Virus record (IMG/VR): IMGVR_UViG_3300045595_000041
Coordinates: 26,206-90,205 of that record
Length of the DNA stretch: 64,000 bases
DNA from: a virus
Lineage: Duplodnaviria; Caudoviricetes
Direction: 5' to 3' (one strand)
In this document: positions 4,017 through 58,900 of the stretch, in pieces
Numbering within the stretch: position 1 is the first letter of the stretch
Layout: each line of letters starts with the position of its first letter
The notes under the pieces: model-generated
Told to the model about the DNA's origin: nothing
The model's input: the letters and a program-made list of their open reading frames with translations, nothing else
Databases searched by the model: none
Position numbers and translations under genes: made by a program

Positions 4017-4102
4017 ACGACGTTTATCTCTAGTGACTTAGAATTGCAAGTGTATATAATTAATAACACTTAATATCGTAAGTCACTAGAGAACAACGTC
4101 GT
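4017..4102 (+). repeat. 86-bp imperfect palindrome, copy 1
   Basis: ACGACGTTTATCTCTAGTGACTTA...TATATAATTAATAA...TAAGTCACTAGAGAACAACGTCGT. Confidence 0.95.
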
Positions 4103-4242
4103 TAATCTGATTGTATGTCTGATTAATATGCAATATATGAATGTAGACTACATGCAGTCAGCAAGATGCTGATTTTACTTTCGTTAATAGTTGTTATATA
4201 ATATAAATACATTGAAAAATGAACAGGAAGGAATGACATATT

Positions 4243-5196
4243 ATGACTGTTAAGTCTCGCTCTAAGAAATTCGAAGTTAATGATTCTCGCTTTCCAAATG
4301 AGCGTATCAAGAATAGAAGCAATGTCGTCAATGATTTGACCGCTATCGATGTCAATCTAAGATACATGCCGACATGGGAAGAAGCTAAAGCTTTTCTTCC
4401 AGATGCTATCATGTCGACATGGGCTGCTAAATCAGATGAGTATGACTTCACTGAGCATCAGAAAGATGCTCTTATGTATAGAGCACTACGAAAGAAGTTC
4501 CTACCTCAATATCTAGAATTCGTTAACGTAGTGTTTTCTGTCGATGGAATGACAGCACACGATCTTTCACATACATTGCGAAACAGGAATGCTTCTTTTG
4601 CAGTAGAATGCACAGGCGACAATTACAAGAATCGCAATGATGTTTCTATGCCAGAAGCCTATAAGGAGCTTGGCTTATCGCATGAGTATGAAGCGCTTGC
4701 TACGCTTCAAATGGATCTGTATGCTAAAGCAATCAATTCTGGTATGAGTGTGCAAGATGCAAGACTTATCTTGCCAAGAGGCATCCATCAGTTCGTAATG
4801 ATGAGGATGACACTTGGCAATGCTCTTGGTCTTATTGCTCAGAGAATTGATCTGCAGATCCAGCCGAAAAGTGACAATCTAATGGCACTTCAGCTTGCAG
4901 TTGCTATGTGTAAGAAATGGCCATTGCTTGCAACTCTTATTGATTTTGATGACACTAACTGGTACTATGTCAAAGAGACTACGACCAACTTTGCTTCTAG
5001 ATTCTTCAAGCCACTTCCGCAAAATGACAAGTTCGAGAACGATGACATTGAATTCAAATTCGATGCAGACCCTCTGCATATCCCAGGTCAGAAGACATTC
5101 ATCAAGTTGCTGAATAAGTACAAAGATGAATTGCTAGCAATCAGAAAGCAAGCAGAAGCAGATTATCCATGGGTTTTCGATGAGGACTATCGCTGA
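4243..5196 (+). CDS. thyX: ThyX-fold (FAD-dependent thymidylate synthase-like) protein, divergent
   Basis: LEFVNVVFSVDG, LRNRNASF (variant of RHRxxS), QDARLILP, R...Q motifs; own promoter at 4171. Confidence 0.75.
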   Translation: MTVKSRSKKFEVNDSRFPNERIKNRSNVVNDLTAIDVNLRYMPTWEEAKAFLPDAIMSTWAAKSDEYDFTEHQKDALMYRALRKKFLPQYLEFVNVVFSVDGMTAHDLSHTLRNRNASFAVECTGDNYKNRNDVSMPEAYKELGLSHEYEALATLQMDLYAKAINSGMSVQDARLILPRGIHQFVMMRMTLGNALGLIAQRIDLQIQPKSDNLMALQLAVAMCKKWPLLATLIDFDDTNWYYVKETTTNFASRFFKPLPQNDKFENDDIEFKFDADPLHIPGQKTFIKLLNKYKDELLAIRKQAEADYPWVFDEDYR

Positions 5197-5219
5197 TTTA
5201 GCTGTCTGGAGTCTCTATC

Positions 5220-7323: not shown

Positions 7324-8016
7324 ATGAAAAGAAAAGACAAAGTCTGCGACATGTCATTATTCAGCATTCAGTCTATAGACGACTGGGATGTAAATGACAT
7401 CATAGATTATGCTGGGTTTGATAGTGAGACTTATGCAAAGCTTGATGATGCAGTTATTCCTAAGATGTACAGACTTTTCAACGTATGGCCTTTAGCAGAT
7501 GCTCAGAAGCTTGTCAGTGATGTCAAGGAAGAGTATTCTAGGTCGAATCTGAAAGACATCGTAGTAGACAACAGCATCTATATCTCGGAAGAGATTGACA
7601 TGCTAAGCGTAAGCAAAGCATTGAGCATCAGCAACAAAGACAAAGTATTCCGAGTAGATGACTTCAATATTATGAAATCATTCGATAAAGCGTCTGTAAG
7701 AGCTCCAAAGACTAATGAAGAGCTTTCTGAAGCGAAGTATTCAGCTTTTGACAGAATCATGAAAGATTTTGACAATCGAAGGTTTCAGAAGTCTGCTGTA
7801 GAGAATGCTAAAGAATCGTTAGAGTTTGCTATTCATGACTATTTAGAGAATGCAATCTGTCGGTATGATGAATACGGTTTGCTAATGATTAGAGGTCTGC
7901 ATCAAGCAGAATACTTCATTCGCAAAATCGTCGGCAAAAGGAATTTCTCTGAGAACACATGGAAGATGCTTTCTTTCGCTTATGCGATTGATGAGAGGAA
8001 GTATTCTGGTGACTAA
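7324..8016 (+). CDS. Hypothetical protein
   Basis: 230-aa ORF with AAGGA RBS. Confidence 0.6.
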   Translation: MKRKDKVCDMSLFSIQSIDDWDVNDIIDYAGFDSETYAKLDDAVIPKMYRLFNVWPLADAQKLVSDVKEEYSRSNLKDIVVDNSIYISEEIDMLSVSKALSISNKDKVFRVDDFNIMKSFDKASVRAPKTNEELSEAKYSAFDRIMKDFDNRRFQKSAVENAKESLEFAIHDYLENAICRYDEYGLLMIRGLHQAEYFIRKIVGKRNFSENTWKMLSFAYAIDERKYSGD

Positions 8017-8854
8017 AGCTACGCCAAGAGACTACTTCAAGAATATAGATGCAGCCTACATCAATCTAGATGTTGCTGTAGAAAGACGAGAAGCGATAGA
8101 GAATTCTTTTGCTAATGTCTTCAGAAGTCTAACAAGGGTTGTTCCAATAGACTTCAAAGACAAGTTTGCTGTTGGTGTAGATACCAAGTTGCGGCTTATG
8201 GACGCTTTGCAGAACTATGATGAAAAAGGGTATTTCAAGTGTTCTGATCAGTATAGAATAGAAGACATGGACAGTTTCAAGCATAGAAAGAACGATTGCG
8301 AATATGTCAATTCTGTCTGGACACCTGAACAATATGCTGCTCAAGAAAGCTTGTCTCAAACATACAAGCAAATTCTTAAAGACTTTCTAGCTAGCAAGCT
8401 AGAACATATCATGATTTTCGAAGATGATGCACGTGCTAGAGATTTTATGAATGACGAAATAGATATTCCTGATGATGCAGAAATTCTAGCATGGGGTGGA
8501 GCTACATCTTCTACTCAGACAGATGCTAAGCGTTTTGCAAATACAGAATCTTTTCATTTTCGTAGAGTAAGTGGCAAACGTACAGCATGGTATTTTACAG
8601 CTTATGAATTCACAAGAAGTGGCGCTACTAAGCTTCTTGAAGATTTTGAATCAGTTCCTGCATATACTACAGATACGATTGTCAGATATACTTTAGATAG
8701 GTCGATTGCTTATCATCTTATTCCAATGGGCTTTGTGCAAGGTGGTTCATCATATCTTGCAAGAGAAGGTGTTCAGATGCCATTGACTAGAGAAGAAGCA
8801 AAGACTTACAATCTGCAAAACATCATTAAGCCTAAAAGCAATAATTCGAAATAG
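7982..8854 (+). CDS. Glycosyltransferase family 25-like, paralog 1
   Basis: YINLDVAVERR and MIFEDDA motifs typical of GT25. Confidence 0.75.
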   Translation: MRLMRGSILVTKATPRDYFKNIDAAYINLDVAVERREAIENSFANVFRSLTRVVPIDFKDKFAVGVDTKLRLMDALQNYDEKGYFKCSDQYRIEDMDSFKHRKNDCEYVNSVWTPEQYAAQESLSQTYKQILKDFLASKLEHIMIFEDDARARDFMNDEIDIPDDAEILAWGGATSSTQTDAKRFANTESFHFRRVSGKRTAWYFTAYEFTRSGATKLLEDFESVPAYTTDTIVRYTLDRSIAYHLIPMGFVQGGSSYLAREGVQMPLTREEAKTYNLQNIIKPKSNNSK

Positions 8855-13770: not shown

Positions 13771-13856
13771 ACGACGTTGTTCTCTGTTGACTTAGAATAT
13801 TAAGTATATATAATTATATATATAGTATACTAGGTATTCACAGAGATAAACGTGAT
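13771..13856 (-). repeat. 86-bp imperfect palindrome, copy 2 (inverted orientation)
   Basis: ACGACGTTGTTCTCTGTTGACTTAGAAT...TATATAATTATATA...CACAGAGATAAACGTGAT, immediately after the dnaE stop. Confidence 0.95.
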
Positions 13857-17490: not shown

Positions 17491-17564
17491 GCCTTTGTAA
17501 TTCAACTGGATAGAATGCCCGTCTTCTAAACGGGATGTTGCGAGTCCGAGTCTCGCCAAAGGCA
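17491..17564 (+). tRNA. tRNA-Arg(UCU)
   Basis: Acceptor GCCTTTG/CAAAGGC, D-arm ATTC/GAAT, anticodon arm CCCGT-CT TCT AA-ACGGG, T-arm GCGAG-TCCGAGT-CTCGC; no encoded CCA. Confidence 0.92.
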
Positions 17565-17590
17565 CGATGATTGCGGTCTATCATCAAAAC

Positions 17591-20680: not shown

Positions 20681-21237
20681 CAGATTCATTAGAGCTTGTA
20701 TCTGCTGTTGCTCAGTCTAGCAAAGAGAGGCTTGCGAAGTCTAGCATATGTAGAATATGCTCTCTAGAAGTATCTGAAAGGCGAGTCTTAGAGCAGCTTA
20801 TAGCTTGTGGAGTGCCCAATACTGTAATCATACATATTGCGAGTCAGATGTTCAATATCGAGATCAATGGCTCTATTATAGCTAAGCACATTGATCATCT
20901 TCCTGCTAAACTGTTCATGTACAAGGAGATAATAGAGAGACGAGCTAAAGAAGCTGGCATATCTCCAGATGATACTGCTAGCAGACTTACTCCAGTCGCT
21001 TACATAGAGATGCTTCTCAATGACGCAGCTCAGACACTTATCGACAATCCTAAAAGCACTAATGCATTCGTTGGAATGCAAGCTGCCAAGACTTTGATAG
21101 ACATCGAAGGCAACAAAGCTTCTCAAGAAGATGTCATGCTTTGGGTTTCTAAGTTCAGGCAATTGGTCGGTGCTATGAAGACTGTATGCTCTCAAGATCA
21201 GATAGACAAGATACTGAAAGTTGTAGAAGATGAGTGA
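20677..21237 (+). CDS. Hypothetical protein (CxxC)
   Basis: ICRIC near N-terminus; coupled to neighbouring genes. Confidence 0.55.
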   Translation: MTDSLELVSAVAQSSKERLAKSSICRICSLEVSERRVLEQLIACGVPNTVIIHIASQMFNIEINGSIIAKHIDHLPAKLFMYKEIIERRAKEAGISPDDTASRLTPVAYIEMLLNDAAQTLIDNPKSTNAFVGMQAAKTLIDIEGNKASQEDVMLWVSKFRQLVGAMKTVCSQDQIDKILKVVEDE

Positions 21238-21535
21238 GTCTGATATATCAAAAGAAGAAGCTGAGCAGAAGTTCGATGATTTCAGAAAGACAAAAGCTTT
21301 GCTTCCATGTCAGTATCTGCCATCTGCTTATTTCTACAGACGATACTGGATATGGTCTTCGCCTACTGATGTTGATGACATAAGAGTCGTAAAGAATGTT
21401 TGCGATACTTGTCCTCTTAAAGAAGAATGCAGGGAAGTCGGCAAGGATGAGCCATATGGCATTTGGGGTAATGAATATAGAGAGCATTGGGCTGAAAGAC
21501 GAGACCTAGACGTCGACAGGGAACCATATGCTTGA
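21230..21535 (+). CDS. whiB: WhiB-family transcriptional regulator
   Basis: C...KNVCDTCPLKEEC...EPYGIWG: four Cys plus G(I/V)WG. Confidence 0.85.
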   Translation: MSESDISKEEAEQKFDDFRKTKALLPCQYLPSAYFYRRYWIWSSPTDVDDIRVVKNVCDTCPLKEECREVGKDEPYGIWGNEYREHWAERRDLDVDREPYA

Positions 21536-26083: not shown

Positions 26084-26116
26084 TATTAGATAGCTATTCT
26101 GTATATCATCAGAATT

Positions 26117-26202
26117 ACGACGTTTATCTCTATGAACTTCAAGTATCAAAGATATATAATTATATATACATAAAATTCTAAGTTCACAGATAACAACGTC
26201 GT
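26117..26202 (+). repeat. 86-bp imperfect palindrome, copy 3
   Basis: ACGACGTTTATCTCTATGAACTT...TATATAATTATATA...AAGTTCACAGATAACAACGTCGT. Confidence 0.95.
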
Positions 26203-39368: not shown

Positions 39369-41034
39369 TGAATGCTATGACTCAAGACATAGAAGCTAAT
39401 GAAAACGACTGCATCTACTATGACAGTCGCAAATGGCTGAAATGCAATGGTGACAACAACTACTACTGCGACTGGTCTATGCACATCATAAAGATTGCTT
39501 ATGGCAAAGTCTCAGTCAAGAAGACGTATTCAGACCCGCTCAATGGTGAGAAGTACATACGAGAATCTCACTCATACAAAAGCAATGATGGCGAACGTCA
39601 TCAAAGAACTATTCGAAGGTATGTCTCTCAGCTTTGCAAAGGCAAGTACGGATTGCAAGAGCCACATATCAGATTCATCACTCGTGGCAATACAGAAAAC
39701 CCATGGTTCTTCTAGAAGAAAGAGCATGACATGACTAAAGACTATGAAGGACTGCTGAACATCAAGAAGCAAGTAGACAACTTCAAGCGACAGCTGCATT
39801 CATACATTGCAGACTTGATTGATGCAGACGATCTTGCATGCATAGACGACAGCATGCTGCGAATAGAAGGCGTAGTGAATTCTTGCATAGCTGATTGCGA
39901 GGACGAGAATGTTCAGAATGATAACAATGAGAACAAAAGCGATAAGAATGACATTGAAAGCGAGACGTCAGAATGACTAGCAAACGAAAGACATTGAAGC
40001 AGAATCTGAATGAGATGAAGCAGCATATCGAAAGCAGATTCAAAGCAAGCTGCGAAGTCAAGAGCTGCATTCTGTCATTTCAGAAAGATGGCGTCTTGTT
40101 CGTCATAGACAAAGCTAATGACACATGGTTCAAGCTTGAATGCTATTCAGCAGATAGCATGCTTCTTGACAGACCGTTCATGTCAAAGCTTGTAGGATGC
40201 AAAGCATATGACACAGTAGATGCTGTCATTGAGAAAGCTACAGAGTCAGGATGGACAGAATGAAGCTAGACTATGATGTTGCTACAGAGTGCTCTGAGAA
40301 GATAGCTAAGCTTGCTTTCAAGCTAAGGCAGTCTGACTCTGTACTGAACATGCGACTACATGAATACAGCGTCACATTCGATTGCTTCAACATGTCATAC
40401 TGCATTTCATTCTACGACATGTTCGTCAATTCTGACACTCTGCTTGTAGAAGAGTATTTGCGCTCTCTTACACGCAGACATGCAACACTGCCTTGGACAG
40501 ATGAAGATTCTGATGCTAAGATGATACTAGCTCTGATTGACGAATGGAAGTCTAGCTCTGTCTTCTGATATGCATCATCTAGCATAGGAAAGAAGCAATG
40601 AAGCATGCACTAGATTGTTCTCTGATGACTTAGAATCATAGGTATATATAATTATATAGACTATATTCTTGATGTTCACAGAGATAAACGTCGTAACACT
40701 GAGGACACATCAGATTCATATCTAATATATGAAATAGAAAGAAGTCATAGATATGACTAAAGAGACATTGACAAGGCATGACATCAATGACATGATGGAA
40801 GCTTTTGCTATAGTCAATTCAATCAAGACTGACGATGGATACGTTGATGGGCTCAGAAAAGCTTCAGAGGCATTGCGTGACTATGCAGTAAGTCTAGTCG
40901 AATTAGACAATCATGAAGAAGCAGAAATCAGAAAGATGATTGCAGAAAAGACTGAAGACGGTCTAGACACATTCGAAATCATAGAATGCTTTACGACTAT
41001 GCTGAAAGACAAATTCTTGCATGGTTCCATGTGA
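39368..41034 (+). other. Run of small hypothetical ORFs (39368-39715, 39731-39976, 39973-40263, 40251-40568, 40753-41034)
   Basis: Closely packed + strand ORFs with no recognisable motifs. Confidence 0.55.
40609..40694 (-). repeat. 86-bp imperfect palindrome, copy 4 (one end degenerate)
   Basis: ACTAGATTGTTCTCTGATGACTTAGAAT...TATATAATTATATA...GTTCACAGAGATAAACGTCGT. Confidence 0.9.
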
Positions 41035-42752: not shown

Positions 42753-42838
42753 ACGACGTTGTTCTCTGTGTACACAGAATACAATGTGTATATAATTTAT
42801 AATACTTATACTTAGAGGTTCACACAATTAAACGTCGT
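42753..42838 (-). repeat. 86-bp imperfect palindrome, copy 5
   Basis: ACGACGTTGTTCTCTGTG...TATATAATTTATAA...GTTCACACAATTAAACGTCGT. Confidence 0.95.
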
Positions 42839-44045: not shown

Positions 44046-44131
44046 ACGACGTTTATCTATAGTGACTTCTAGTATCAGGTCTATATAATTATATATGCTA
44101 TATATTCTAAGTCTACAGAGAACAATGTCAT
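44046..44131 (+). repeat. 86-bp imperfect palindrome, copy 6
   Basis: ACGACGTTTATCTATAGTGACTT...TATATAATTATATA...AAGTCTACAGAGAACAATGTCAT. Confidence 0.92.
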
Positions 44132-44237
44132 AACTTTGGCTATCGATTTTACTTTCTTCATTTTATGGTATATAATATAACTATAAGCTAAACAAATAGC
44201 TTGCATTGATGACATGAAAGAATGAAAGGATCGAATC

Positions 44238-47730: not shown

Positions 47731-47816
47731 ACGACGTTGATCCAGATTGACCTAGAATTTGAAGTATATATAATTATATATGCTAGATACTTGATGTTCA
47801 CACGTATAAACGTCGT
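47731..47816 (-). repeat. 86-bp imperfect palindrome, copy 7
   Basis: ACGACGTTGATCCAGATTGACCTAGAAT...TATATAATTATATA...GTTCACACGTATAAACGTCGT. Confidence 0.93.
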
Positions 47817-47861
47817 CATTCTGAAGATATGCAGAGTACAAAGATAGGATATTGATATGAC

Positions 47862-48529: not shown

Positions 48530-48587
48530 TTGCAATTGCATGAAATGCTATGTCTTATAATCAAAAAGCTTAGAAAGGCAAACTGAA

Positions 48588-49058
48588 ATGAAGCACACTT
48601 TAAGAATCAACATGAAGAACAATGTGAAAGATGGAGATGAAGTTCATGTCTTCTTGCACGACTTGAATGTTGATTTCATGTTCGACAGAGAATGCGAGAT
48701 CTATGCAAAATACTTTGCGCATCTTGAAGATGGAGTCATCTACGTTGGCGAATGCAATATAGACAATCTATACGATCAGAATCATGCACCGAAGCATGGA
48801 GCTTATGCAGAGTTCTTGTTTGCTACTAGAGATAAAGAAGATGATGAAGAAGACAGTCTTCTTTCAAGAGAAGACATCTTGACTCTGTTCAAGAAAGAAG
48901 ACGGATCTGTATGGTTCATCAGCAGAGACAACCATCCGATTCTTCTTCATGGAGCTCGTGGCAATGTCACTGCTAAATACGCTAGACAATGCATTGACTC
49001 TTATGGCTTCCCTGGAGGAAAAAGTCATTACAAGAGGTTTGATGTATCTCTTAAGTAG
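48588..49058 (+). CDS. Hypothetical protein
   Basis: 156-aa ORF with AAAGG RBS. Confidence 0.55.
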   Translation: MKHTLRINMKNNVKDGDEVHVFLHDLNVDFMFDRECEIYAKYFAHLEDGVIYVGECNIDNLYDQNHAPKHGAYAEFLFATRDKEDDEEDSLLSREDILTLFKKEDGSVWFISRDNHPILLHGARGNVTAKYARQCIDSYGFPGGKSHYKRFDVSLK

Positions 49059-49239
49059 CATTCTGCAAAGAAAGCAATTTAGCATGTTCTCATGAATCAC
49101 AGCAAAAGCCCAGTATGCGAAAAGCATTGAGAGCCATTCACGTTAATATACATTTGGTTAATAATCCTATATCCCAGTTTTAAGCTGTTTCCTAGAAGCA
49201 CTATGGCAAGACTGCATGCTGTAAGATATATTCATTCAT

Positions 49240-50575
49240 AGTTAAACTATGTCATAAAATGTGATACAATCAACTTATATATAGAAGATTGGAGGTATAC
49301 GATGGATGACAAAGCACGTCTATCTAAGAACAGTCGTATAGCTCAATCGGGAAAAGAAACTCGGAATCGCAGAAAACATCAGGAATGCAAAGTATTCTCG
49401 CTTAAGATACAAAACAACAAACTGAGTTCACTTCAAAAAGAACAACTTAAGATGTGCTTTGTTGAAGCAAAATGGCTAAGGAATGATGTTCTGTCCAATG
49501 GTGTGCAGGGCTATGTGATAAAACGTGATGTTGAAGTCAAGACACCTACTGGTATGGTCACAAGAGCATTCTCATATCTTAGTGCTCGGGTCAAGCAGTC
49601 TGTTGTCGAAGAAGTGAAGCAGAATCTTAAAACTCTGTCATCATTGAAGAAGAAAGGGCATCATGTAGGAAAACTCAAGTTTGTTTCAGAAGTCACATCA
49701 ATCAATCTTGCACAATATGGTTTCACCTATAAGGTCAAAGGTCGTAGAATTCATGTTCAGAAAATTAGTGGCTGGATGCGTGTCAATGGTGTGGAGCAGC
49801 TTCATGGATATGAACTTGCCAATGCCAAATTGCTGAACCGTCCCGATGGCTGTTATCTTAATGTGACATGCTTTAGAGACAAGCAAAAAGAAGACTTCTT
49901 GGAAGGCACTGCAATTGGTATTGATATGGGTGTAAAGACTCATATCACTCTATCTGATGGAACGAAGATCAAAGCCACAGTCGGAGAAACTGAGCACTTG
50001 AGACGCTTGCATAAGAAGCTGTCGCGTCAGACAAAAGGCTCTAACGGCTATGTCAAGACTCGAACTCTCATCAAAATAGAATACCAGAAGCTCACCAACA
50101 AGAAGAACGACATGTCCAATCATATCGTCAATTGTCTTCTACGATACAATCATGTATGCATGCAGGACGAAAACGTAAAAACATGGAGAAGTCTAAAGTC
50201 TCTATCTCATGGTTCAAGAACCATCCAGCATTCTATTCTTGGTCGGGTGAAGAGCAAGTTGGTCGCTAACCCAAGAACAATTGTTCTTGATAGATTCGAA
50301 CCTACGACAAGGCTGTGCGAGTGTGGCATGAAGAACACTGTGTCGCTATCAGACAGAACCTATCATTGTGACAGATGTGGATATGCTAATGATAGAGATG
50401 TTCATGCTGCACAGAACATGATTCGAATTAGCGAATCACATAATCTGTTGATACCTATGGAACATAGGAATTTTAAGCCAGTGGAGAGTCTATTAGACGT
50501 GTTGACGAAGTATGCCAATACGCAGGACTCTATGAAACTGGAAGCTTCTGAGTCTTTAGACTAGTGGTAGTTCAT
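49240..50575 (+). mobile_element. Non-autonomous IS200/IS605- or IS607-type element (tnpB only)
   Basis: Right-end-like GAAGC...TTTAG...TGGTAGTTCAT at 50541-50575; hairpin CATAGTT-A-AACTATG at 49237-49251; no tnpA seen; left boundary approximate. Confidence 0.7.
49302..50564 (+). CDS. tnpB: TnpB RNA-guided endonuclease
   Basis: RuvC-I GIDMGVK, RuvC-II MQDE, TTRLCECG...YHCDRCG Zn ribbon, RuvC-III DRDVHAAQN. Confidence 0.92.
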   Translation: MDDKARLSKNSRIAQSGKETRNRRKHQECKVFSLKIQNNKLSSLQKEQLKMCFVEAKWLRNDVLSNGVQGYVIKRDVEVKTPTGMVTRAFSYLSARVKQSVVEEVKQNLKTLSSLKKKGHHVGKLKFVSEVTSINLAQYGFTYKVKGRRIHVQKISGWMRVNGVEQLHGYELANAKLLNRPDGCYLNVTCFRDKQKEDFLEGTAIGIDMGVKTHITLSDGTKIKATVGETEHLRRLHKKLSRQTKGSNGYVKTRTLIKIEYQKLTNKKNDMSNHIVNCLLRYNHVCMQDENVKTWRSLKSLSHGSRTIQHSILGRVKSKLVANPRTIVLDRFEPTTRLCECGMKNTVSLSDRTYHCDRCGYANDRDVHAAQNMIRISESHNLLIPMEHRNFKPVESLLDVLTKYANTQDSMKLEASESLD

Positions 50576-50603
50576 ACAAGCTTCAATTACTGAGATTGAT
50601 CTG

Positions 50604-51650: not shown

Positions 51651-51684
51651 TTCCATCCATTGCACTGGCTGTATCACCAGAATA

Positions 51685-51770
51685 ACGACGTTTATCTCTA
51701 TGAACTTAGAGTATCAAGTATATATAATTATATATGCTTAAGATTCTAGGTTAACACGTATAAACGTCGT
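51685..51770 (+). repeat. 86-bp imperfect palindrome, copy 8
   Basis: ACGACGTTTATCTCTATGAACTTAG...TATATAATTATATA...GTTAACACGTATAAACGTCGT. Confidence 0.95.
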
Positions 51771-51853
51771 CAATAGTATTAGTAGCATGCTTTCTGCAAG
51801 CGTTTTGATATAATTATCAATATAAGCAACATTACTATGAAACGAGCAGGCGT

Positions 51854-52312
51854 ATGGTATCAAGACGACAGCAAGACAGAGCTCTAGAAAGAGCTAGAGC
51901 TGCAGAGCAGCCTGTAGAAGATGAAGTCGAAGTGCATGATGAAGCTGATGAAGTTGCTATCATAGAAGCTGCTAGACAAGGTGAGAAGAAGCAAGTCATA
52001 TCTATTCTAAAGCACACTGTAGAGATGAAAGTGCTTAATGCTAGAGAAGAGATGGAAGCTTTCACTCTCGTATCTCAGTATGAGAACTCTCTAGCATATC
52101 CGCTTGCATACAATACAGCTATATTCGCTATGTCTGTCATTCGAATAGATGGAGAGCTGTTCATACCGTCTATATCTAAAAGAGATGACACGCCAGAAGC
52201 TAGATACGAGAAAGCTAAAGACTACTACTCTAAATTCATAGAGAAGTACTGCTTAGCTTACAGAGACATGAAGAACGAATCAGACAAAGAGCTTGAAGAA
52301 CTGGGAAAATGA
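51854..52312 (+). CDS. Tail assembly chaperone
   Basis: Two ORFs upstream of the tape measure gene; ends in slippery G GGA AAA TGA. Confidence 0.7.
   Translation: MVSRRQQDRALERARAAEQPVEDEVEVHDEADEVAIIEAARQGEKKQVISILKHTVEMKVLNAREEMEAFTLVSQYENSLAYPLAYNTAIFAMSVIRIDGELFIPSISKRDDTPEARYEKAKDYYSKFIEKYCLAYRDMKNESDKELEELGK
52303..52309 (+). other. Programmed -1 frameshift site GGGAAAA
   Basis: X XXY YYZ heptamer just before the stop; next ORF is in the -1 frame. Confidence 0.75.
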
Positions 52313-52620
52313 TTCGGCAGGGACTGTCTGATGAGACAGCATCTCGCTTGAGATGGCTTGACAGAAGCAATTCTCTGCCTGAATCTAGACTCAATGTCCA
52401 TATTAAGCAGTATCTTGATGAGATCGATGCTAAGAACGACAAAAAGTTCTATGTCGACATTGCTAAGATGCTGACAGCATTCATCAATCCGAAGATGCAC
52501 GAAGCAGCATTCTCAGCTGAAGACGACTCTGTCAACCAAAGGCATTCTATCAATGGAGAGGTAGACATGAGCAAGATATCGGAATTCCTGTCTGCTCACA
52601 ATCTTGGTGGTAAGATATGA
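52309..52620 (+). CDS. Tail assembly chaperone, frameshift extension
   Basis: -1 frame relative to 51854 ORF; overlaps the tape measure start. Confidence 0.65.
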   Translation: MIRQGLSDETASRLRWLDRSNSLPESRLNVHIKQYLDEIDAKNDKKFYVDIAKMLTAFINPKMHEAAFSAEDDSVNQRHSINGEVDMSKISEFLSAHNLGGKI

Positions 52621-54626
52621 CAGACAATTCTACAGCTTTCTCTTTCGACGAAGACGAAGACAGCAGATCAATAGGCGATCTGATAGATCTGATAAAGAGC
52701 AGATATGCAGAAGAAGACGAGAAGCGGGAGAAAGAGCGTGCTGCTAATGCCGAATCTCGTTCTAGCGATGAGCCGAGCGATTACGAAAGCAACATAGCAG
52801 CTATAGCTAAAGCTGTCAAAGAGAGCAATGAAAGACAGAAAGTCGACAGTGCTAAGCATGACAATGACAGAGTCAAGCGGCAGCAGAATGAAGAGAAGAA
52901 AGCTGCAGCAAGTCGCATATCTAATGCTAGCGACGACAGGAAGATAGCTCAATTCAGCAAAGTGAATGCTGACGAAATACGAAAAGCATTCGCTACTCTC
53001 AACATGAATCAAGTCGTTAAGAATCTTGACATGTACACTTCGTCAATCAACAAGTACATTGACGGAATGCATACTGTAATGTCTATGGGCACTTCTTTCT
53101 ATGACAGCTTGCATTCAAGACTTGCGACTAAAGCAGCTTCTGAAAACATAGACCAGACTGCTATGCGAGCTAAAGCTTCTGAGATATCTTCTGACATGAA
53201 GACAGTCATAGACTCCAAGCAAGCTTTGGGCGAAAATGCTGTATCATCTATTCCGCAGACTGGCTCATCAGCTGGTGCTAACTCTGATGAAGCTATGAAG
53301 TCTGTCAGCACTGCGATCTCAAAAGCTTTGCAAGCTGGCAAGTCTGTCACTAAGACGCCTGGCATAGTATCTGAAGCAACTGACACTATTGCTAAGCCAG
53401 CATCAGAAGCATTAGATTCTGCAGCTACTTCTAAGATAGGTACTGCAGCTTCAGGCGCTTTAGCTGATGGCGCTGAGACAGCTGCAACAGGAGCAATAGG
53501 CTCTGGCATAGCAGGTGCAGCTGGAGATGCTGCAGCTGGTGCAGCTGGAGATGCTGGTGCTGCTGGTGGATTGATGTCGCTTGCTGGAAGTCTTCTTACT
53601 AAAGTCAATCCCGTTCTTGCAGGTGTTACAGCAGTTGGTGCTCTTGCTAAAGCTGGCATGGAAGGCTATAGAGATGCACAAAGACAAGGCAATGTCTATG
53701 GCTTAGGTGCAGGTGAAGGTGCCAAGATGATGGCATCTGGCGGATGGCAAGATGCTCAGAAGTTCCTTGGTCTTACAGATGTGTCTGGCAAAGACTTGGC
53801 GAACTTCAGAACAAGCGCTTCAAATGCTGGCTTGTCATATGGGTCAGAAGCTTTCAATGCTTCCATTGAATTGAAGAAGAGCATAAAAGACTCTGGGCTT
53901 CCTGATTCAATGATGTCTATGGCTGATCAGATGCTTAAGACTGGCGCTTCAACAGATGCTGTCAAGTCTTCAATGGATGCTTTGAAAGATACAGCTAAGA
54001 CGACTGGCCAAAGCCTAGATGACATAACTAAGTCTGCTGCTGGAATAGGCAATAAGATAAATCAGGGAACTGGCGGCAGTGATGGTGAGGAGATGGCTGC
54101 AGATGTGCAAGCGAATCTTGAGAAAACTGTCAAAGACACTACTGGCGCTACCATAGGCGTAAAAGACGCTCAGGCGCTAGTAAGCAACAAGGCATTCTTG
54201 CAGGGTCTTGGCTCTCTTGGCGGAGATGCTCTTGCAGCTTCTCAAAGCTCTGTCACGGCTACAAGATACCTGAATGACCATCCAGAAGACGCTTCAAGAG
54301 CTATGCAAAATATGTTGAGATTCAATACTCTTCCTGGAACAAGCACTAGCGAACAGTATATGAACGAGAACAATCTGGACAGAGCTGGCCTTGGCGCTGT
54401 CATAGGCTCTGTAGACAGAGCTAGAAAAGTAGCAGTAGGAGAATCTGATTACGGCGGATCTAAGAGCTCATCTAGAAAGTCAAGAAGCAATAGCGATGCT
54501 AAGTCTTCATCAGACATCAACATAAAGATAAGCGCAGATGATGGTCTGTATGCTAAGATGGCTAAGAAAGACGAGACGCTGCAGAGAATCTATTCTGGCT
54601 CTGACTCTATGAGAATAGGCAAGTAG
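52617..54626 (+). CDS. Tape measure protein
   Basis: Ala/Gly/Ser-rich, helical, hydrophobic segment near residues 315-345; follows the chaperone pair. Confidence 0.7.
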   Translation: MTDNSTAFSFDEDEDSRSIGDLIDLIKSRYAEEDEKREKERAANAESRSSDEPSDYESNIAAIAKAVKESNERQKVDSAKHDNDRVKRQQNEEKKAAASRISNASDDRKIAQFSKVNADEIRKAFATLNMNQVVKNLDMYTSSINKYIDGMHTVMSMGTSFYDSLHSRLATKAASENIDQTAMRAKASEISSDMKTVIDSKQALGENAVSSIPQTGSSAGANSDEAMKSVSTAISKALQAGKSVTKTPGIVSEATDTIAKPASEALDSAATSKIGTAASGALADGAETAATGAIGSGIAGAAGDAAAGAAGDAGAAGGLMSLAGSLLTKVNPVLAGVTAVGALAKAGMEGYRDAQRQGNVYGLGAGEGAKMMASGGWQDAQKFLGLTDVSGKDLANFRTSASNAGLSYGSEAFNASIELKKSIKDSGLPDSMMSMADQMLKTGASTDAVKSSMDALKDTAKTTGQSLDDITKSAAGIGNKINQGTGGSDGEEMAADVQANLEKTVKDTTGATIGVKDAQALVSNKAFLQGLGSLGGDALAASQSSVTATRYLNDHPEDASRAMQNMLRFNTLPGTSTSEQYMNENNLDRAGLGAVIGSVDRARKVAVGESDYGGSKSSSRKSRSNSDAKSSSDINIKISADDGLYAKMAKKDETLQRIYSGSDSMRIGK

Positions 54627-54628
54627 TC

Positions 54629-55516
54629 ATGGTCATATCTATCACATCAGGCACAGCTGCATATTCATTTGCGACTAACCCTACAGACTGGTCTTACACT
54701 GTCAAGCCTAAGTACACTATATCAGACACATTGCAAGGCAGAGTCATACAGCTTCTTGGCAAGACAGAGTCTGGAGCTTTCAGTGGCGATCTATGTGCAA
54801 GACCAGCATCTCCATCTGATCTTGACTCCATAGCGTATGTATTCGCTTCGTTCTACAAGTCTGTACTTCAGAACCAGCAGAACAACATACCTACAAGGCT
54901 TCAGTTCCCAGACAAGGGCATAGATGTCATATGCGCTTTGGGAGACTATGCTTACTCTAAGAGCCTTGACACGAAGTCTGTCCCATATGCTATATCATTC
55001 GATGTCGTCAGAAATTCGTCTCCAATGACAAAAAGCGACATGTCCTCTCTGTTCAATGCTATCAGACAAGACATAGGCTTCACATCTGGAGACGAGGGGT
55101 GGCATGGAGGGGCTGGAGACTACACTCTGCAGCCGATCACTGGACTTACGCCAAATGGAGTAGAAGTCAAGGGTCAGACAGTAGGCACATCTGCAGATCT
55201 AGCTTCTAATTCTCCTGTCGATTGCCAGAAGTATGCTCATCAAAGAGTGCTTGACATGGGTTGGACAGAAGCTGACTTCGCTGCTCTTGTCAAGCTATGG
55301 AATCGTGAGTCAGGCTGGAACTACAAAGCTACGAATCAATCTTCTGGCGCATACGGTATCGTGCAGTCTCTGCCACCTGAGAAGATGGCATCTGCTGGTG
55401 CTGACTGGAAGACTAATCCGAAGACTCAGATAGAGTGGGGACTTAAGTACATAAAGGACAGGTATGGAAGTCCGTCGCAAAGCTGGCAACACGAGTTGTC
55501 CGTCGGATGGTATTAA
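54629..55516 (+). CDS. Tail/baseplate protein with C-terminal lytic transglycosylase domain
   Basis: DTLQGRVIQLLG N-terminus; LWNRESGWN...SSGAYGIVQSLP.EKMASAGADWKTNPKTQIEWGLKYIKDRYGSP. Confidence 0.85.
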   Translation: MVISITSGTAAYSFATNPTDWSYTVKPKYTISDTLQGRVIQLLGKTESGAFSGDLCARPASPSDLDSIAYVFASFYKSVLQNQQNNIPTRLQFPDKGIDVICALGDYAYSKSLDTKSVPYAISFDVVRNSSPMTKSDMSSLFNAIRQDIGFTSGDEGWHGGAGDYTLQPITGLTPNGVEVKGQTVGTSADLASNSPVDCQKYAHQRVLDMGWTEADFAALVKLWNRESGWNYKATNQSSGAYGIVQSLPPEKMASAGADWKTNPKTQIEWGLKYIKDRYGSPSQSWQHELSVGWY

Positions 55517-55548
55517 ATGATAATGATTGTCAACAAAGGTAACATATC

Positions 55549-56256
55549 ATGTCTATGACGCTGTATTCTTCTGACACTATGGTAGAAGTGCTTCCAATAC
55601 GAATGTCTTGGACTATGCAATCTGATGCTAGCACTTCTGTAGCTCAAAGAAATGCTTGGTTCCAGGCTAAGCATCCACGACAAGACAGCTTGACAGTCAC
55701 GTTCAGAAATGGTCCGCAAGAAGTGCAAGAGCAGACAGCTATGTGCTTCCAAAGATGGCAGAGAGGAAATACGATACTGACTCTGTCTTGGCCTGAGCAG
55801 CATATGAACTACAAAGTCACAATAGCTAGCTTCTCATGGCAAGAGACAGCTGGAGCGCCGACTAAAGACTTGACTGCATCATTCTTGCTTCTGACTAACA
55901 TGTTCCAGACATCTATGACAGACATGATAGTATCGACAGACGTCATAAAGATAGTAGAGTCAATGCTTGAGAATGAAAGCATAGACGACAAGCTTGGAGA
56001 CATAGCTAAAGACAACAACAAGAACCTGTATGACAAGTGGTCTAAAGAGAACAAGCAGATAGCTGGCATGACGATAGCATATCTTGGCGATGGCAATGTC
56101 AGAATATCATGCACTAAGCCGATAGACTACACTAAGCCATTGAGCAGCAGCATGCAGTCAGCATCGTTCACAGTGCCATTCAGTCAGGATCTAGCTGAGA
56201 CATTAGCTAGCAACAGTGATGTGTACTCGTATCTTCAGCATCTGTCTGGCAAGTAG
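55549..56256 (+). CDS. Probable tail/baseplate protein
   Basis: Position in tail operon; beta-rich N-terminus. Confidence 0.5.
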   Translation: MSMTLYSSDTMVEVLPIRMSWTMQSDASTSVAQRNAWFQAKHPRQDSLTVTFRNGPQEVQEQTAMCFQRWQRGNTILTLSWPEQHMNYKVTIASFSWQETAGAPTKDLTASFLLLTNMFQTSMTDMIVSTDVIKIVESMLENESIDDKLGDIAKDNNKNLYDKWSKENKQIAGMTIAYLGDGNVRISCTKPIDYTKPLSSSMQSASFTVPFSQDLAETLASNSDVYSYLQHLSGK

Positions 56257-56277
56257 AAATAGATTGGGAAGGCAAGA

Positions 56278-58779
56278 ATGAGCAATCAAGTCACAGAGGC
56301 TTTCTACTCTGGAGTGGAAGTCATGGTGCGTCTTGCAAACAGCTCCATAATAGACGTGTCTGATGATGTTGAGTCTGTCACTGTATCAAGACGCAAGTCT
56401 GCAATATCGACAGCATCAGTCACTCTGAACAATGCAGGATCGTATTCTCAGGGCAAGTACAGCGCTGGTAAATGGAAGCTGCACCCTGGCGATGCTGTGC
56501 ACATAAGCTTCCTCAAGAACGACAGGACTATAGAAGCTTTCACTGGCAAGATATCCAAATGCCCAGCTTTCGGATTCTATAACATAAGCTACTCATTCGA
56601 TTGCGAAGACGCTATAGGCGACTTGCACTACATCTACTGGGATCCGTATTCGACTAAAGCTATAGAGAAGTACTGGAACGGCACAATGTCTGTACTTAGC
56701 AACGACAGCAAGTCAAGCAATGACGCTGAATCAGGGTCTCAGCTAGTGCAGTTCTTGCAGGACGTATGCGGCTTTCCGTCTAGCATGATAAAGATAGCTA
56801 AGTTCCCTAATCAGAATAAGTTCGTAGATGACATAATCGGATCGATAACTGATGGCAAAGCTCAGTCTGATGACATGGCTCTGTCTATATTCCAGCAGCT
56901 GTTCGGTCCAACAAACATGTCTGATGCTTCTTCTAGCAAAAATGGATCTGCTGCAGCTGGAGACGTAGATTCTTATCAAGGCGTCATCAAGAAAATGCTG
57001 AATCTTGATGCTAAATCTAACATGAATGATGTGGGCAAAGAAGTTGGATTCGTCAATGCAAACAGCAATACCACTTATGACTGGACGCATATGGATGGAG
57101 AAGGTCATACTGGCAAGTATGGTCTGACTCAAGAGCAGATGAAGAAATGGGCTAAGATCGACAAAGCAGCTAAAGACTGCTCAGCATCTGCTCAGGACAA
57201 AGCTATGAAAGCTATATGCTTAGACATATCAAAGGGCACAGGAAGTGAAGATGCTGCTTGCATCATATTCTACTACTTCACTGGTCTCAATATCAAAGAC
57301 AAAAAAGGCAAAGCTGATCTGAAGCTTCCAAGCAATGCCTATCTTAAGATTGGCAATACTACTTACAAGACTCTTGACAAGTGGAAAGCTTTCATAGACA
57401 AGCAGATTGGTAAGACTAGTAGCTCTTCTTCATCTGGCTCGTCTAGTTCACATACATCAAATTCAGCTACTGGATCGACAGCTATGGATAGAAAGCTAGA
57501 TGCATTTCTGAAAAAGCATGCTGATGGTACTCCATCTCTTGATGTAGATGGAGCTTTCGGGCATCAGTGCTGGGATCTGTATCTGTCTTACGGCAAGGAA
57601 GTCTTGGGCTTCAGCATGGGCAGTCCAGAGATGATGCAAGATGCTGGCGGAAATGGTGCTTTCTACAATGCTATGCCGAAAGGGTCTAGCGGAAATGTGC
57701 TGAAGAAGATACCGCCAAGCGAAACATGCCAGAAGGGCGACATAGTACTGTGGAGAAGCTCTCCTGGAGATGGAGGATATGGGCATGTCGCTATAGTGCT
57801 TTCAGACAAGGGATCAGGCGTGGACTGCTTGTCGCAGGGAGGGTCAATACCAACTGTCTTCAGAATGACGATGCCAAAGAACTCTGGTGGCTATTCGCTT
57901 GCAGGGTATCTTAGACCTACTGGAGTGACTGGGTCTTCTGACGACTCTGGCTCATCAGATGGCAGCTCGTCTGACTCTGCTACTGCTACTGCTGAAGACC
58001 TAGCATACAAGCTGTTCAAGTATGTCACTTATGTAGGGCAGACACCAAGCTATGAGTCTGAAGCTCTTACTGGCCCATTAGCTCTGTACAATGACAAGCC
58101 TGCGCTTGAATTCGTGCAATCACTTTGCAAAGGGTCTATGAGAGAGTTCATGACTTTGCCAGATGGATCGTTTGCAGCATTCGTACCTGACTACTTCGGC
58201 AAGCTTCATGCATCTGGCATTCTTAACAACGAGATATCGATACCTCAGTACGAGATAGTAGACTACTCTGCAGACTTCAACAAGTCCATGTACACTTCTC
58301 ATGTCTACTTGCTTACTAGAGAGCATATGGACACTCAGTACGGAGTCACTATCGGAACATTCGATGAAGTGCAAAGACTTCTGCAATCAAATGGCACTAT
58401 ATCGTTGGAGAAGCAGGGAGACAGTCTTCTCAAGCTTGTAGACATATCGATAACAGGATGCAAGACAGCATCTCAGCTATTGCAAAGATTCGGAGTATCA
58501 GTATACGATACTACTGACAACTACATAATAGACTCAACTATGACAGCTGTCAAAGCTTTGCTGATCTTCATGGAGAGATGGGCAGCTTGCTTCTCGAATA
58601 CTTTGAAGATAACATTCAGGCCAGAGATACTGCCAGGTATAAGACTTAGACTAGAAGGAGCAGGAGTGACTGTATTCGTGGAGTCTGTCACTCATTCTTG
58701 GTCCGCTACTAATGGCGGAGCTACAAATGTGCAGATATCGTCTCCAGTTGAGACGAATACTGGAAAAGTTGGATTGTAA
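56278..58779 (+). CDS. Baseplate hub-like protein with internal CHAP peptidoglycan hydrolase
   Basis: Hub-type N- and C-termini (IDVSDDV..V.V.R, FRPEILPG.R...VESVTHSW); DVDGAFGHQCWDL...GYGHVAIV...LSQ...GYLRP CHAP domain. Confidence 0.8.
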   Translation: MSNQVTEAFYSGVEVMVRLANSSIIDVSDDVESVTVSRRKSAISTASVTLNNAGSYSQGKYSAGKWKLHPGDAVHISFLKNDRTIEAFTGKISKCPAFGFYNISYSFDCEDAIGDLHYIYWDPYSTKAIEKYWNGTMSVLSNDSKSSNDAESGSQLVQFLQDVCGFPSSMIKIAKFPNQNKFVDDIIGSITDGKAQSDDMALSIFQQLFGPTNMSDASSSKNGSAAAGDVDSYQGVIKKMLNLDAKSNMNDVGKEVGFVNANSNTTYDWTHMDGEGHTGKYGLTQEQMKKWAKIDKAAKDCSASAQDKAMKAICLDISKGTGSEDAACIIFYYFTGLNIKDKKGKADLKLPSNAYLKIGNTTYKTLDKWKAFIDKQIGKTSSSSSSGSSSSHTSNSATGSTAMDRKLDAFLKKHADGTPSLDVDGAFGHQCWDLYLSYGKEVLGFSMGSPEMMQDAGGNGAFYNAMPKGSSGNVLKKIPPSETCQKGDIVLWRSSPGDGGYGHVAIVLSDKGSGVDCLSQGGSIPTVFRMTMPKNSGGYSLAGYLRPTGVTGSSDDSGSSDGSSSDSATATAEDLAYKLFKYVTYVGQTPSYESEALTGPLALYNDKPALEFVQSLCKGSMREFMTLPDGSFAAFVPDYFGKLHASGILNNEISIPQYEIVDYSADFNKSMYTSHVYLLTREHMDTQYGVTIGTFDEVQRLLQSNGTISLEKQGDSLLKLVDISITGCKTASQLLQRFGVSVYDTTDNYIIDSTMTAVKALLIFMERWAACFSNTLKITFRPEILPGIRLRLEGAGVTVFVESVTHSWSATNGGATNVQISSPVETNTGKVGL

Positions 58780-58814
58780 TATCCTTCATTGGATATCACT
58801 GTATCATCATGTTA

Positions 58815-58900
58815 ACGACGTTTAATCGTGTGATACTTCAGTATTAGGTATTATAAATTATATAGACCTAATGCTTCAAGTTCACAGAGAACAACGTCGT
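58815..58900 (+). repeat. 86-bp imperfect palindrome, copy 9 (between convergent genes)
   Basis: ACGACGTTTAATCGTGTGA...TATTATAAATTATATA...AAGTTCACAGAGAACAACGTCGT. Confidence 0.95.

Follow-up and report, generated by a model that had tools for sequence, protein, structure and literature searches.

A dispersed intergenic element of 86 bp with mirrored promoter-like arms in the genomes of two phage groups

The element family in the window and in related phages

The window analysed here (a stretch of 64,000 nucleotides from the 90-kb contig of an uncultured sludge phage) holds, among other features, genes for DnaE, a WhiB-like transcription factor, a TnpB-like protein, an 833-aa virion protein and a dCMP deaminase, a tRNA, a set of canonical promoters and nine intergenic copies of a palindromic element (Table 1). 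All nine copies listed in the preliminary description were verified at their positions, each exactly 86 bp long; the degeneracy of the ends in copies 2, 4 and 6 is as described there, and the inversion of copies 2, 4, 5 and 7 relative to 1, 3, 6, 8 and 9 was confirmed by the best-scoring profile strand. The AT-only centre with its AA/TT dyad is likewise present, with copies 1, 5 and 9 deviating from TATATAATTATATA. The octamer that forms the end box, ACGACGTT, was counted 15 times over the window (0.31 expected; 0 of 100 shuffles reach 15) and is nearly exclusive to the element, as 109 of its 113 occurrences fall inside one.

A profile scan of the contig and of its relatives raised the count to 13 copies in the contig (the 4 additional ones lie upstream of the window) and to 86 over six phage genomes (11-17 per genome), which belong to two groups with only 4-9% of their DNA alignable between them. 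Length is conserved in these relatives, 78 of the 86 copies measuring exactly 86 bp, and the earlier proposal of a genome-wide, fixed-length family of cis-elements with real polarity is supported. Several positions (such as that of copy 2 behind DnaE) are orthologous across both groups, and 20 of 22 orthologous junctions are filled in all genomes where they exist, the remaining 2 being accounted for by one degenerate copy and one ORF-calling difference. Metagenomes returned 28 matches, among which all 21 full-model matches are exactly 86 bp long, and an unrelated phage (G006) carries a single copy of 88 bp, with a 17-bp spacer in both arms and the change confined to the centre. In DNA contigs of other runs, no reliable joints were seen at elements. 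The element was not found in ~185,000 reference prokaryote genomes, and our search for a published description of the family found none.

Table 1. Positions of the elements and of neighbouring features, in window coordinates
Feature	Position	Strand	Remarks
Copy 1	4017..4102	+	86 bp; arm A left; no clear flank polarity; followed by a canonical promoter, -35 from 4174
Copy 2	13771..13856	-	86 bp, inverted; 4 nt after DnaE stop; flank downstream (D); right end degenerate
Copy 3	26117..26202	+	86 bp; flank upstream (U), 26087-26116
Copy 4	40609..40694	-	86 bp, inverted; left end box degenerate; flank downstream
Copy 5	42753..42838	-	86 bp, inverted; flank downstream; G000/G001 homology breakpoint at centre
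Copy 6	44046..44131	+	86 bp; right end degenerate; canonical promoter 44148-44176 directly behind
Copy 7	47731..47816	-	86 bp, inverted; 4 nt after upstream stop; flank downstream
Copy 8	51685..51770	+	86 bp; flank upstream; first element before virion-protein block; in G001 a TnpB gene lies 75 bp behind its orthologue
Copy 9	58815..58900	+	86 bp; flank upstream; between converging genes for 833-aa virion protein (+) and dCMP deaminase (-)
Proximal flank motif (copy 3 example)	26087..26116	+	reads outward AATTCTGATGATATACAGAA...
Canonical promoter (example)	44148..44176	+	TTTACT-17-TATAAT, then ATAACTATA
Canonical promoter	59425..59453	-	predicted to drive dCMP deaminase gene toward copy 9
Other canonical promoters (starts)	1647, 4174, 6712, 15699, 17133, 20085, 26218, 28699, 29931, 33875, 35309, 39117, 42165, 46492, 59544		
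WhiB-like transcription factor gene	21230..21535	+	Pfam PF02467, E 1.4e-6, 29.1 bits (cut-off 23.6 bits)
TnpB-like gene (OrfB_IS605 / Cas12f1-like TNB)	49302..50564	+	not cognate to the repeats
tRNA	17491..17564		Rfam 15 match

Anatomy of the arms and placement between genes

Read inward, each arm is composed of the end box (positions 1-8), TCTCTG (11-16), a -35-like hexamer (GTGAAC/TTGACT, 16-22), a spacer of 16-17 bp that is free in sequence and fixed in length, and TATAAT (39-44). Two such -10 hexamers overlap in the AT-only centre, TATAAT occupying 39-44 of the top strand and 43-48 of the bottom one. Both A2 and T6 are present in hexamer 39-44 of 125 out of 150 arms (62/75 sense, 63/75 antisense), and 144 of the 150 have a -35 with at least 3 of 6 matches. 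Along 41 orthologous pairs the differences cluster in the two spacers (~21-33 and 54-67), the boxes, the centre and the length being fixed, and the two arms diverge alike (5.9 vs 5.8 differences per pair in the sense and antisense arm, respectively). The one-sided flank, previously put at ~20 bp, is real and longer than that (~45 nt); in copy 3 the distal part of its motif provides the TAG stop of the upstream gene. The arm on the flank side belongs to class A in 14 of 20 copies of group I, while in group II class Y was assigned to the flank-side arm in 18 of 37 copies and to the other arm in none of the 37.

The canonical promoters (TTTAC-17-TATAAT) constitute a separate, strictly sense-oriented family that has the TATATAAT core and the 17-bp spacing in common with the arms. 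They are found within 300 nt downstream of 19 of the 86 elements and upstream of only 2, and 65 copies have none within 300 nt; behind copy 3 the predicted canonical start site lies ~51 nt beyond the end of the element. Elements abut the stop codons of upstream genes (median 6 nt for copies of D polarity), and the next sense start follows at a median distance of 73 nt (27 nt for the endolysin gene behind copy 3508). The genes run one way, the phage genome coding on one strand. An element occupies each of the three supported convergent junctions in G000 and is not directly followed by a sense gene there, and the lone copy of G006 likewise lies at converging transcription; the convergent setting reported for copy 9 was borne out, its minus-strand ORF being a dCMP deaminase by Pfam, PHROGs and a codon-position test. 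The 52.7-kb structural block of G003 contains 1 of 21 canonical promoters against 7 of 17 elements, and that of G000 contains 2 of 20 against 6 of 13; about six other gaps of the G003 block also show -10-type matches.

An unbiased sigma70 scan of window positions 39500-59400 placed element centres among the top-scoring sites (copies 4, 6 and 7 on both strands, with 10-11 of 12 matches, copy 4 having 10/12 on each), the first of all being the sense arm of copy 7 (TTGACC-16-TATAAT, 11/12), while promoter-like sites in this region are not above shuffles in number (53 vs 45.2, sd 6.3). Terminator-like sites are few there (6 vs 12.1 in shuffles), and the intrinsic-terminator scan of the same region listed none of the elements, which show no GC-rich stem.

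Candidate readings of the element

We consider that proteins most likely recognise the element as DNA, and that it most likely docks RNA polymerase together with a regulator. Tentatively, and with somewhat less than even confidence, we propose that it may be a factor-dependent pair of face-to-face promoters serving as transcription-unit punctuation, i.e. a clade-specific cassette that would be recognised as double-stranded DNA. A simple promoter role had been dismissed in the preliminary description, yet promoter geometry (a -35-like hexamer, a 16-17 bp spacer and TATAAT with the core noted above) fits the anatomy best. Since the -10 hexamers overlap in the AT-only centre, RNA polymerase could occupy either orientation (with starts predicted at about position 51 rightwards and 36 leftwards), and the constancy of the 86 bp would follow from two promoter spacers and box-to-hexamer distances that are all fixed. 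The combination of a weak -35 with invariant outer boxes suggests dependence on a sequence-specific factor. WhiB proteins are linked to region 4 of sigma-A, and the conserved WhiB-like protein (family 54, encoded in 5 genomes from both groups) is a purely conjectural candidate for the reader of the boxes. The sense arm would restart transcription past the stop codon of the upstream gene, and insulation of the upstream unit would fall to the opposing arm or to the bound complex. Against facing promoters speak the equal conservation of sense and antisense arms in genomes whose genes run one way, the elements at convergent junctions, the abutment to upstream stop codons, as would be expected of an end-of-unit signal, and the 19 copies with a canonical promoter close downstream, for which a second promoter appears redundant; the additional -10-type gaps in the G003 structural block weigh against elements as the sole promoter candidates there. 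The one-sided flank motif is outside what facing promoters account for.

Several of these observations would find a place if the element lacked promoter activity itself and offered a symmetric site where a DNA-binding protein of phage or host origin docks (to act at unit ends as a roadblock or insulator, or else in an architectural role), its promoter-like hexamers being by-products of an AT-rich bendable centre. We regard this as unlikely, yet as deserving real weight: the arms are equally conserved irrespective of gene direction, the end octamer is almost confined to the element, upstream stop codons are abutted, canonical promoters are preceded rather than followed by elements, transcription converges at the lone copy of G006 as it does at the three G000 junctions that hold an element, and the scanned region is poor in terminator-like sites. 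However, mere docking gives no account of why, in both arms, 16-17 bp separate a -35-like hexamer from a central TATAAT, spacings of 57 and 78 bp between half-sites would be uncommon for a single protein, none was identified as a candidate, and ordinary intrinsic terminators are found elsewhere in these phages. Moreover, because 65 of the 86 copies have no canonical promoter nearby, a strong block would leave the genes that follow (e.g. the endolysin) unexpressed.

A role in DNA metabolism, as multiple replication origins or as hot spots of recombination and module shuffling in the manner of PeSLs, seems improbable to us. A meltable centre between inverted boxes is known from baculovirus hrs and from T4 promoter-type origins, and the element has an AT-only centre so flanked; the phage furthermore encodes a UvsX-like recombinase and a DnaB-like helicase with its loader, the homology between the group I genomes G000 and G001 breaks in the middle of copy 5, and the G001 orthologue of copy 22691 shows a TnpB insertion together with an inverted arm. 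Against the recombination sites suggested earlier speak the absence of breakpoint enrichment (4 of 33 HSP ends between G000 and G001 fall within 20 bp of an element, against an intergenic baseline of 13%; 0-3 of 10-40 ends do so in group II pairs) and the retention of the element at orthologous junctions. As to origins, 11-17 copies per genome are many and no initiator gene was recognised; origin, recombination and packaging roles gained no support.

The position right after stop codons, the independence of orientation and the folding of 5 of the 9 window copies far beyond shuffles (z -5.3 to -8.3) would agree with a signal at the RNA level, whereby a transcript hairpin acts as terminator, as RNase III cut (such cleavage takes place at T7 intergenic sites) or as stabiliser of the mRNA 3' end of the upstream gene. 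We hold this to be quite improbable, as the other 4 copies barely beat shuffles (z -1.3 to -2.6), a U-tract is absent and the flanks have no T-runs, the elements have no Rfam 15 match at gathering score (the tRNA being the sole match), and the genuine terminators of the same genomes, with GC-stem and T-run, look different. Copies 1, 3 and 9 do show the arm covariation noted earlier, but it does not exceed what arms of different copies give: complementarity is 27.39 of 43 within copies vs 27.45 between copies (1243 of 2000 permutations reach the observed value), and 0 of 132 end-box deviations are compensated. Complementarity equal to cross-copy pairing, together with zero compensation, speaks against a selected hairpin or cruciform, the latter having been among the structures first proposed. 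A conserved palindrome, then, need not imply a hairpin, and a simple compensation test removes such a reading.

A MITE or PATE-like element spread by the TnpB/IS605-type element of the window, suggested by dispersed palindromes in both orientations and by 2 of 3 TnpB genes lying in or beside an element, is extremely improbable and was rejected, given that no TSDs were found (abutting direct repeats are distributed as in random 86-bp windows), that there are no real empty sites (the lone apparent case is a degenerate copy), that positions are kept across groups so little alignable, that TnpB (one gene in G000, two in G001, none in G002-G005) is absent from group II despite equal copy numbers, and that the ~185,000 reference prokaryote genomes searched lack the element. 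The earlier statement that neither TSDs nor a cognate transposase are evident holds in both parts, with the correction that the window does contain a TnpB/OrfB_IS605-like gene.

Returning to facing promoters, a bolder form of that reading, which we deem rather improbable, would make the copies a switchable set of two-way promoters and insulators: at a set time, both arms would receive polymerase through a phage factor (e.g. the WhiB-like protein, via region 4 of sigma-A), and each copy would then restart sense transcription and also send a short antisense RNA into the upstream or converging gene at its 3' end, which would shut earlier units off. If true, this would be a symmetric, copy-number-scaled temporal switch, undescribed in any phage. 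Phage genomes are punctuated by regulatory cassettes, few of which have been dissected beyond T4, T7 and lambda; for actinobacterial phages there is hardly any such case. The present element has an unusually rigid geometry, conserved over two barely alignable phage groups and standing beside a clearly separate host-type promoter class. It thus offers a synthesisable 86-bp object for asking how a phage makes promoters of a second class, whether symmetric ones are deliberately employed to insulate or to generate antisense RNA, and what it is that reads ACGACGTT.

Comparison with known systems

Activator-dependent middle and late promoters of phages (the T4 MotA-box, P2 Ogr-dependent and Mu C-dependent ones) combine a good -10 with a non-canonical -35 that is replaced or flanked by an invariant box, and occur in several copies per genome beside a host-type class; they are single and directional, whereas the element would be a facing pair. 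Baculovirus hrs, an analogy drawn in the preliminary description, are also dispersed imperfect palindromes with a conserved centre, arranged in tandem clusters in an animal virus, where they act as enhancers and origins. Among actinophages, the stoperators of Cluster A are dispersed operator-like repeats. Cluster O mycobacteriophages have a 17-bp palindrome, present as dozens of invariant symmetric motifs that are mostly intergenic and in both orientations (PMC4351075). Such actinophage repeats are single sites of 13-17 bp, while the element is an 86-bp composite with a promoter-like layout and a one-sided 45-nt flank.

The bidirectional bacterial promoters of Warman/Grainger have a pseudo-symmetric, AT-rich common -10 at which polymerase can engage either way round; their divergent start sites are separated by 10-23 bp (commonly 18, 10 or 23 bp), and they are short and generally unrepeated (PMC12825309). 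The overlapping opposite-strand -10 hexamers described there are seen, at the level of sequence, in the element too; unlike those promoters, it has mirror-conserved -35 regions and outer boxes, is multi-copy in a genome that codes on one strand, and has a predicted start-site separation of ~15 bp, which is not among the common published values.

The PeSL cassettes of T4-type phages are dispersed intergenic stretches of ~100 bp that begin from the upstream stop codon, bear sigma70-like -35/-10 boxes and are thought to delimit transcription units (PMC2839356, PMC4122927). The likeness lies in sigma70-like boxes within a conserved intergenic cassette. A PeSL consists of a unidirectional promoter and a stable, GC-rich stem-loop terminator (often with a G-run and a C-run) whose position varies, and it marks breakpoints of indels and replacements among close relatives (PMC2839356, PMC4122927). 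The element, by comparison, displays neither a selected stem-loop nor breakpoint enrichment, and is a rigid 86-bp mirror pair with specific end boxes, occurring in both orientations.

Occurrence of the element and the phages that carry it

The 86-bp element is real and conserved. All nine copies that the preliminary description had reported for the window were recovered in place, each exactly 86 bp long and running from ACGACGTT to AACGTCGT, and a profile built from them and searched against the whole contig (G000, an uncultured viral contig of 90,205 bp with CheckV completeness 81%, in which the window is bases 26206-90205) brought the number to 13, all of 86 bp without indels, nine oriented one way and four inverted. 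The window contains 15 instances of the terminal octamer ACGACGTT, 0.31 being expected. Of the 50 loci from a pattern scan of IMG/VR, 23 matched the full profile and 27 were chance matches; five related contigs were retrieved complete for comparison with G000; by profile, the six genomes (G000-G005) hold 86 copies (13, 16, 14, 17, 15 and 11, respectively), of which 78 measure exactly 86 bp and the remainder 82-87 bp, so that the claimed constancy of length extends to the relatives. Within these genomes the octamer is nearly private to the element, 109 of its 113 occurrences being element ends. The metagenome scan produced 28 matches, all to group II relatives (92-100% identical) with no new lineages among them, and the 21 matches that span the whole model are without exception 86 bp long. 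An IMG/VR scan with the arm (a half-element read inward from its end box) added only L090, a further fragment of group II, and a single copy in L095/G006, an unrelated phage; this copy is an 88-bp variant that retains the 17-bp spacer in both arms, a hint that the quantity conserved is the distance from box to -10 within each arm, not the total of 86 bp. The remaining new single matches were attributable to chance in high-GC DNA. No copy of the element was found in the reference prokaryote genomes (~185,000), in whose contigs the arm 19-mer had no matches and the inner-box palindrome 12 loci, none of them matching the profile; Rfam likewise gave no match. A short palindrome in G003, with the inner boxes TCTCTGTG ... 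CACAGAGA lying ~30 bp apart and without ACGACGTT ends, could represent the element in truncated or ancestral form.

The six related phages fall into group I (G000 and G001, mutual identity ~91.5%) and group II (G002-G005, mutual identity ~94-97%), between which 4-9% of the DNA is alignable, at ~67% identity. Coding is on one strand essentially throughout all six genomes, and in the window (GC 40.6%) the plus strand carries nearly all genes. The 12 kb queried by megablast gave no DNA match to cultured phages. The DnaE-like polymerase of G000 is ~31% identical to the enzymes of Rhodococcus, Gordonia and Mycobacterium phages, and a WhiB-like gene (above the Pfam cut-off) is common to both groups; despite the 41% GC, these two features suggest that the host is an actinobacterium. 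Scans of 56 different G000 ORFs in Pfam and/or PHROGs turned up no gene for an RNA polymerase or sigma factor, which is no proof of absence, since many of these ORFs belong to no family. The window also carries a tRNA gene and a cluster of nucleotide/DNA-modification genes.

Features located in the window and in related or unrelated contigs
Feature	Contig	Position	Remarks
Canonical promoters (16 sites)	G000	window 1647-59572	e.g. 44148-44176, 46492-46520, 42165-42193
Intrinsic terminator	G000	window 46443-46467	9-bp stem, 6 GC pairs, T-run; canonical promoter directly after
WhiB-like transcription factor gene	G000	window 21230-21535	Pfam PF02467; conserved in both phage groups
tRNA-Arg(TCT) gene	G000	window 17491-17565	ARAGORN and Rfam
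Nucleotide/DNA-modification gene cluster	G000	window 4243-5196, 7982-8854, 27211-28212, 29403-31009, 58904-59341	ThyX-like, glycosyltransferases, dCTP deaminase, nucleoside 2-deoxyribosyltransferase, YfbR-like 5'-deoxynucleotidase, dCMP deaminase
TnpB/OrfB_IS605-like gene	G000	window 49302-50564	one gene
TnpB/OrfB_IS605-like genes	G001	87983-89442 and 36713-38008 (gene-direction coordinates)	two genes
88-bp element variant	G006 (L106/L107)	27204-27291	sole G006 copy; 39.8-kb unrelated phage contig
Short palindrome	G003	102866-103101 (gene-direction coordinates)	
Loci with TTCACAGAAAGACTC upstream of an extended -10	G003	59725, 74680 (gene-direction coordinates)	orthologues in G002, G004, G005

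Anatomy and polarity of the arms

Across 150 arms, information content peaks at positions 1-8 (ACGACGTT), 11-16 (TCTCTG), 18-19 (GA) and 37-46 (TATATAATTA), and is lowest at ~21-33. Read inward, the arm presents a -35-like hexamer at 16-22 (GTGAAC; TTGACT in the best copies), a 16-17 bp spacer and TATAAT at 39-44, the opposing -10 hexamers overlapping at the centre of the element. The A2 and T6 of the -10 are kept in 125/150 arms and a -35 with at least three of six matches in 144/150, and for neither feature is there a difference between sense-facing and antisense-facing arms. In 41 orthologous pairs the changes concentrate in the two spacers, with boxes, centre and length constant, and the two arms diverge equally (5.9 vs 5.8 differences per pair). 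An unbiased sigma70-like scan of window 39500-59400 placed element centres among the best-scoring sites (in copies 4, 6 and 7 on both strands), the total of such sites in that stretch being not above shuffles. Judged by eye, ECF-sigma, T7-like and SPO1-like readings of the boxes have the wrong spacings.

The polarity claimed for the element proved genuine, as a conserved ~45-nt flank borders just one of the two arms on its outer side. Arm class follows this polarity: class A accounts for the flank-side arm in 14/20 group I copies and class X for the opposite arm in 15/20, and among group II copies class Y occurs on the flank side in 18/37 and on the opposite side in 0/37. Relative to the genes, the flank lies upstream (U) in 13 copies of group I and downstream (D) in 10, with 6 unclear; the corresponding figures for group II are 12, 29 and 16. 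In G000, class A faces sense in the copies of the structural block and class X in the D copies of the early region, a link of arm class to genome region that is suggestive only and confined to G000, no such split being seen in group II. An outward promoter within the flank was discarded by eye: at a distance of 16-18 bp its -10-like TATACT/TAATAT have no -35, and the spacing of ATATAC...TAATAT is ~13.

Gene context and possible function

The same phages carry a separate and very regular canonical promoter family (cTGATTTTAC(T/A), 17 nt, TATAAT, then ATAAcTATA, often with TG upstream), for which a position matrix counted 20 sense vs 2 antisense sites in G000 and 8-21 sense vs 1-5 antisense across genomes. 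As the unrelated G006 holds the same type (5 matches vs 0 in shuffles), this is probably the consensus promoter of the host. Canonical promoters concentrate in the replication and small-gene region; the 52.7-kb structural block of G003 contains 1/21 of them vs 7/17 elements, and the corresponding block of G000 2/20 vs 6/13. Roughly six further gaps of the G003 block have -10-type matches, and two have true GC-stem/T-run terminators. The clean intrinsic terminator of the window, directly followed by a canonical promoter, shows the form that an ordinary unit boundary takes in this phage. At two group II loci, the only ones linking the arm box to such a site, TTCACAGAAAGACTC stands ~36 nt upstream of an extended -10 (TGTGATATAAT / TTGATATAAT); these may represent a further promoter variant with the arm box in the opposite orientation.

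In gaps that contain both an element and a canonical promoter, the order is element first in 19 cases and promoter first in 2; 65 elements have no canonical promoter inside 300 nt. D-polarity copies abut the upstream stop codon (median 6 nt); where the polarity is U, the stop codon is contained in the flank; the next sense start follows at a median of 73 nt and never within 10 nt. The codon-position test supports exactly three minus-strand genes in G000. All three end against an element, so every convergent junction of this genome is occupied. The G006 copy likewise occupies the point at which plus- and minus-strand gene blocks run towards each other, and it directly follows an intrinsic-terminator-like hairpin.

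Judged from its anatomy, the element would be a phage regulatory cassette. The model that fits best is a promoter-pair 'punctuation' cassette, in which two face-to-face promoters would share one pseudo-symmetric -10, because fixed length is combined with free spacers, the hexamers are promoter-spaced and the -10 core is common with the canonical promoters. Furthermore, a factor-dependent class of promoter, resembling phage middle or late promoters, is suggested by the weakness of the -35 and the invariance of the ACGACGTT and TCTCTG boxes. At the same time, the equal conservation of the antisense arm, the close fit to the upstream stop, the element-then-promoter order and the copies at convergent junctions show that, in addition or as an alternative, the element marks where transcription units end; weighing these signs together with the promoter-like anatomy, we place the promoter-pair cassette slightly below an even chance. 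The equal conservation of the antisense arm and the three positional signs also favour a protein-docking insulator only, without promoter activity, which we consider rather unlikely.

An origin or recombination role appears improbable. The check for synteny breaks at elements returned no enrichment (4/33 ends vs the 13% intergenic baseline), and PeSL-type shuffling as the main role was dismissed on this ground. Among contigs of four DNA runs other than the source, covering window 39500-59400, joints at elements or canonical promoters occurred only with sides of 20-30 letters, and loose ends at the centre of copy 8 were cross-mapped paralogous copies (one being the sequence upstream of copy 22691, a further G000 copy); no reliable sign of inversion or deletion at elements was found in this material.

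An RNA-level role is still more improbable. The preliminary description had noted arm covariation and named a cruciform as one possibility. A hairpin or cruciform was not supported, given that complementarity within copies is 27.39/43 vs 27.45 between copies of the same genome (1243/2000 permutations reach the observed value) and that of 132 end-box deviations in 75 full copies, 0 are compensated on the other arm. Folded as RNA, the nine window copies gave z-scores between -8.3 and -1.3, four of them barely better than shuffles. On these results, the covariation in copies 1, 3 and 9 is a chance product of two similar consensus arms, and the element is two similar mirror-image half-sites read as DNA.

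That the element is itself mobile is extremely improbable, given the lack of target-site duplications (direct repeats abutting the element do not exceed in length those at random windows), the conserved positions across groups and the restriction of TnpB to group I. It is present in every genome having the junction at 20/22 orthologous junctions, the two exceptions being a degenerate copy and an ORF-calling difference, and cross-group orthologous positions lie directly after DnaE, after NAD ligase, after gene family 17, and beside the giant tail gene and gene family 108. The claim that no cognate transposase is evident stood: the window does contain a TnpB/OrfB_IS605-like gene, which is not cognate to the repeats, and such genes occur in group I only (one in G000, two in G001) and are absent from group II. 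One G001 gene is inserted at an element, in a 1.45-kb insertion adjoining an inverted copy of the flank plus the first ~31 nt of arm A; the other, 75 bp behind another element, replaces the end box of the copy 8 orthologue. This suggests that the IS targets or recombines at elements.

Comparison with known systems

Topic searches, in which the element sequence was not a term, found no published 86-bp element with these boxes, in agreement with the earlier statement that no described family was recognised. Face-to-face promoters sharing a pseudo-symmetric -10 are documented among bacterial bidirectional promoters (PMC12825309). Of published concepts, the PeSL cassette of T4-type phages (PMC2839356, PMC4122927) comes closest; as outlined in those accounts, it resembles the element in size, location and promoter boxes, and the likeness does not extend to the stem-loop or to the association with breakpoints. 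Moreover, Cluster O mycobacteriophages are described as carrying an unexplained palindrome of 17 bp in >30 copies (PMC4351075), which, on that description, is a simpler relative in kind of the 86-bp element.
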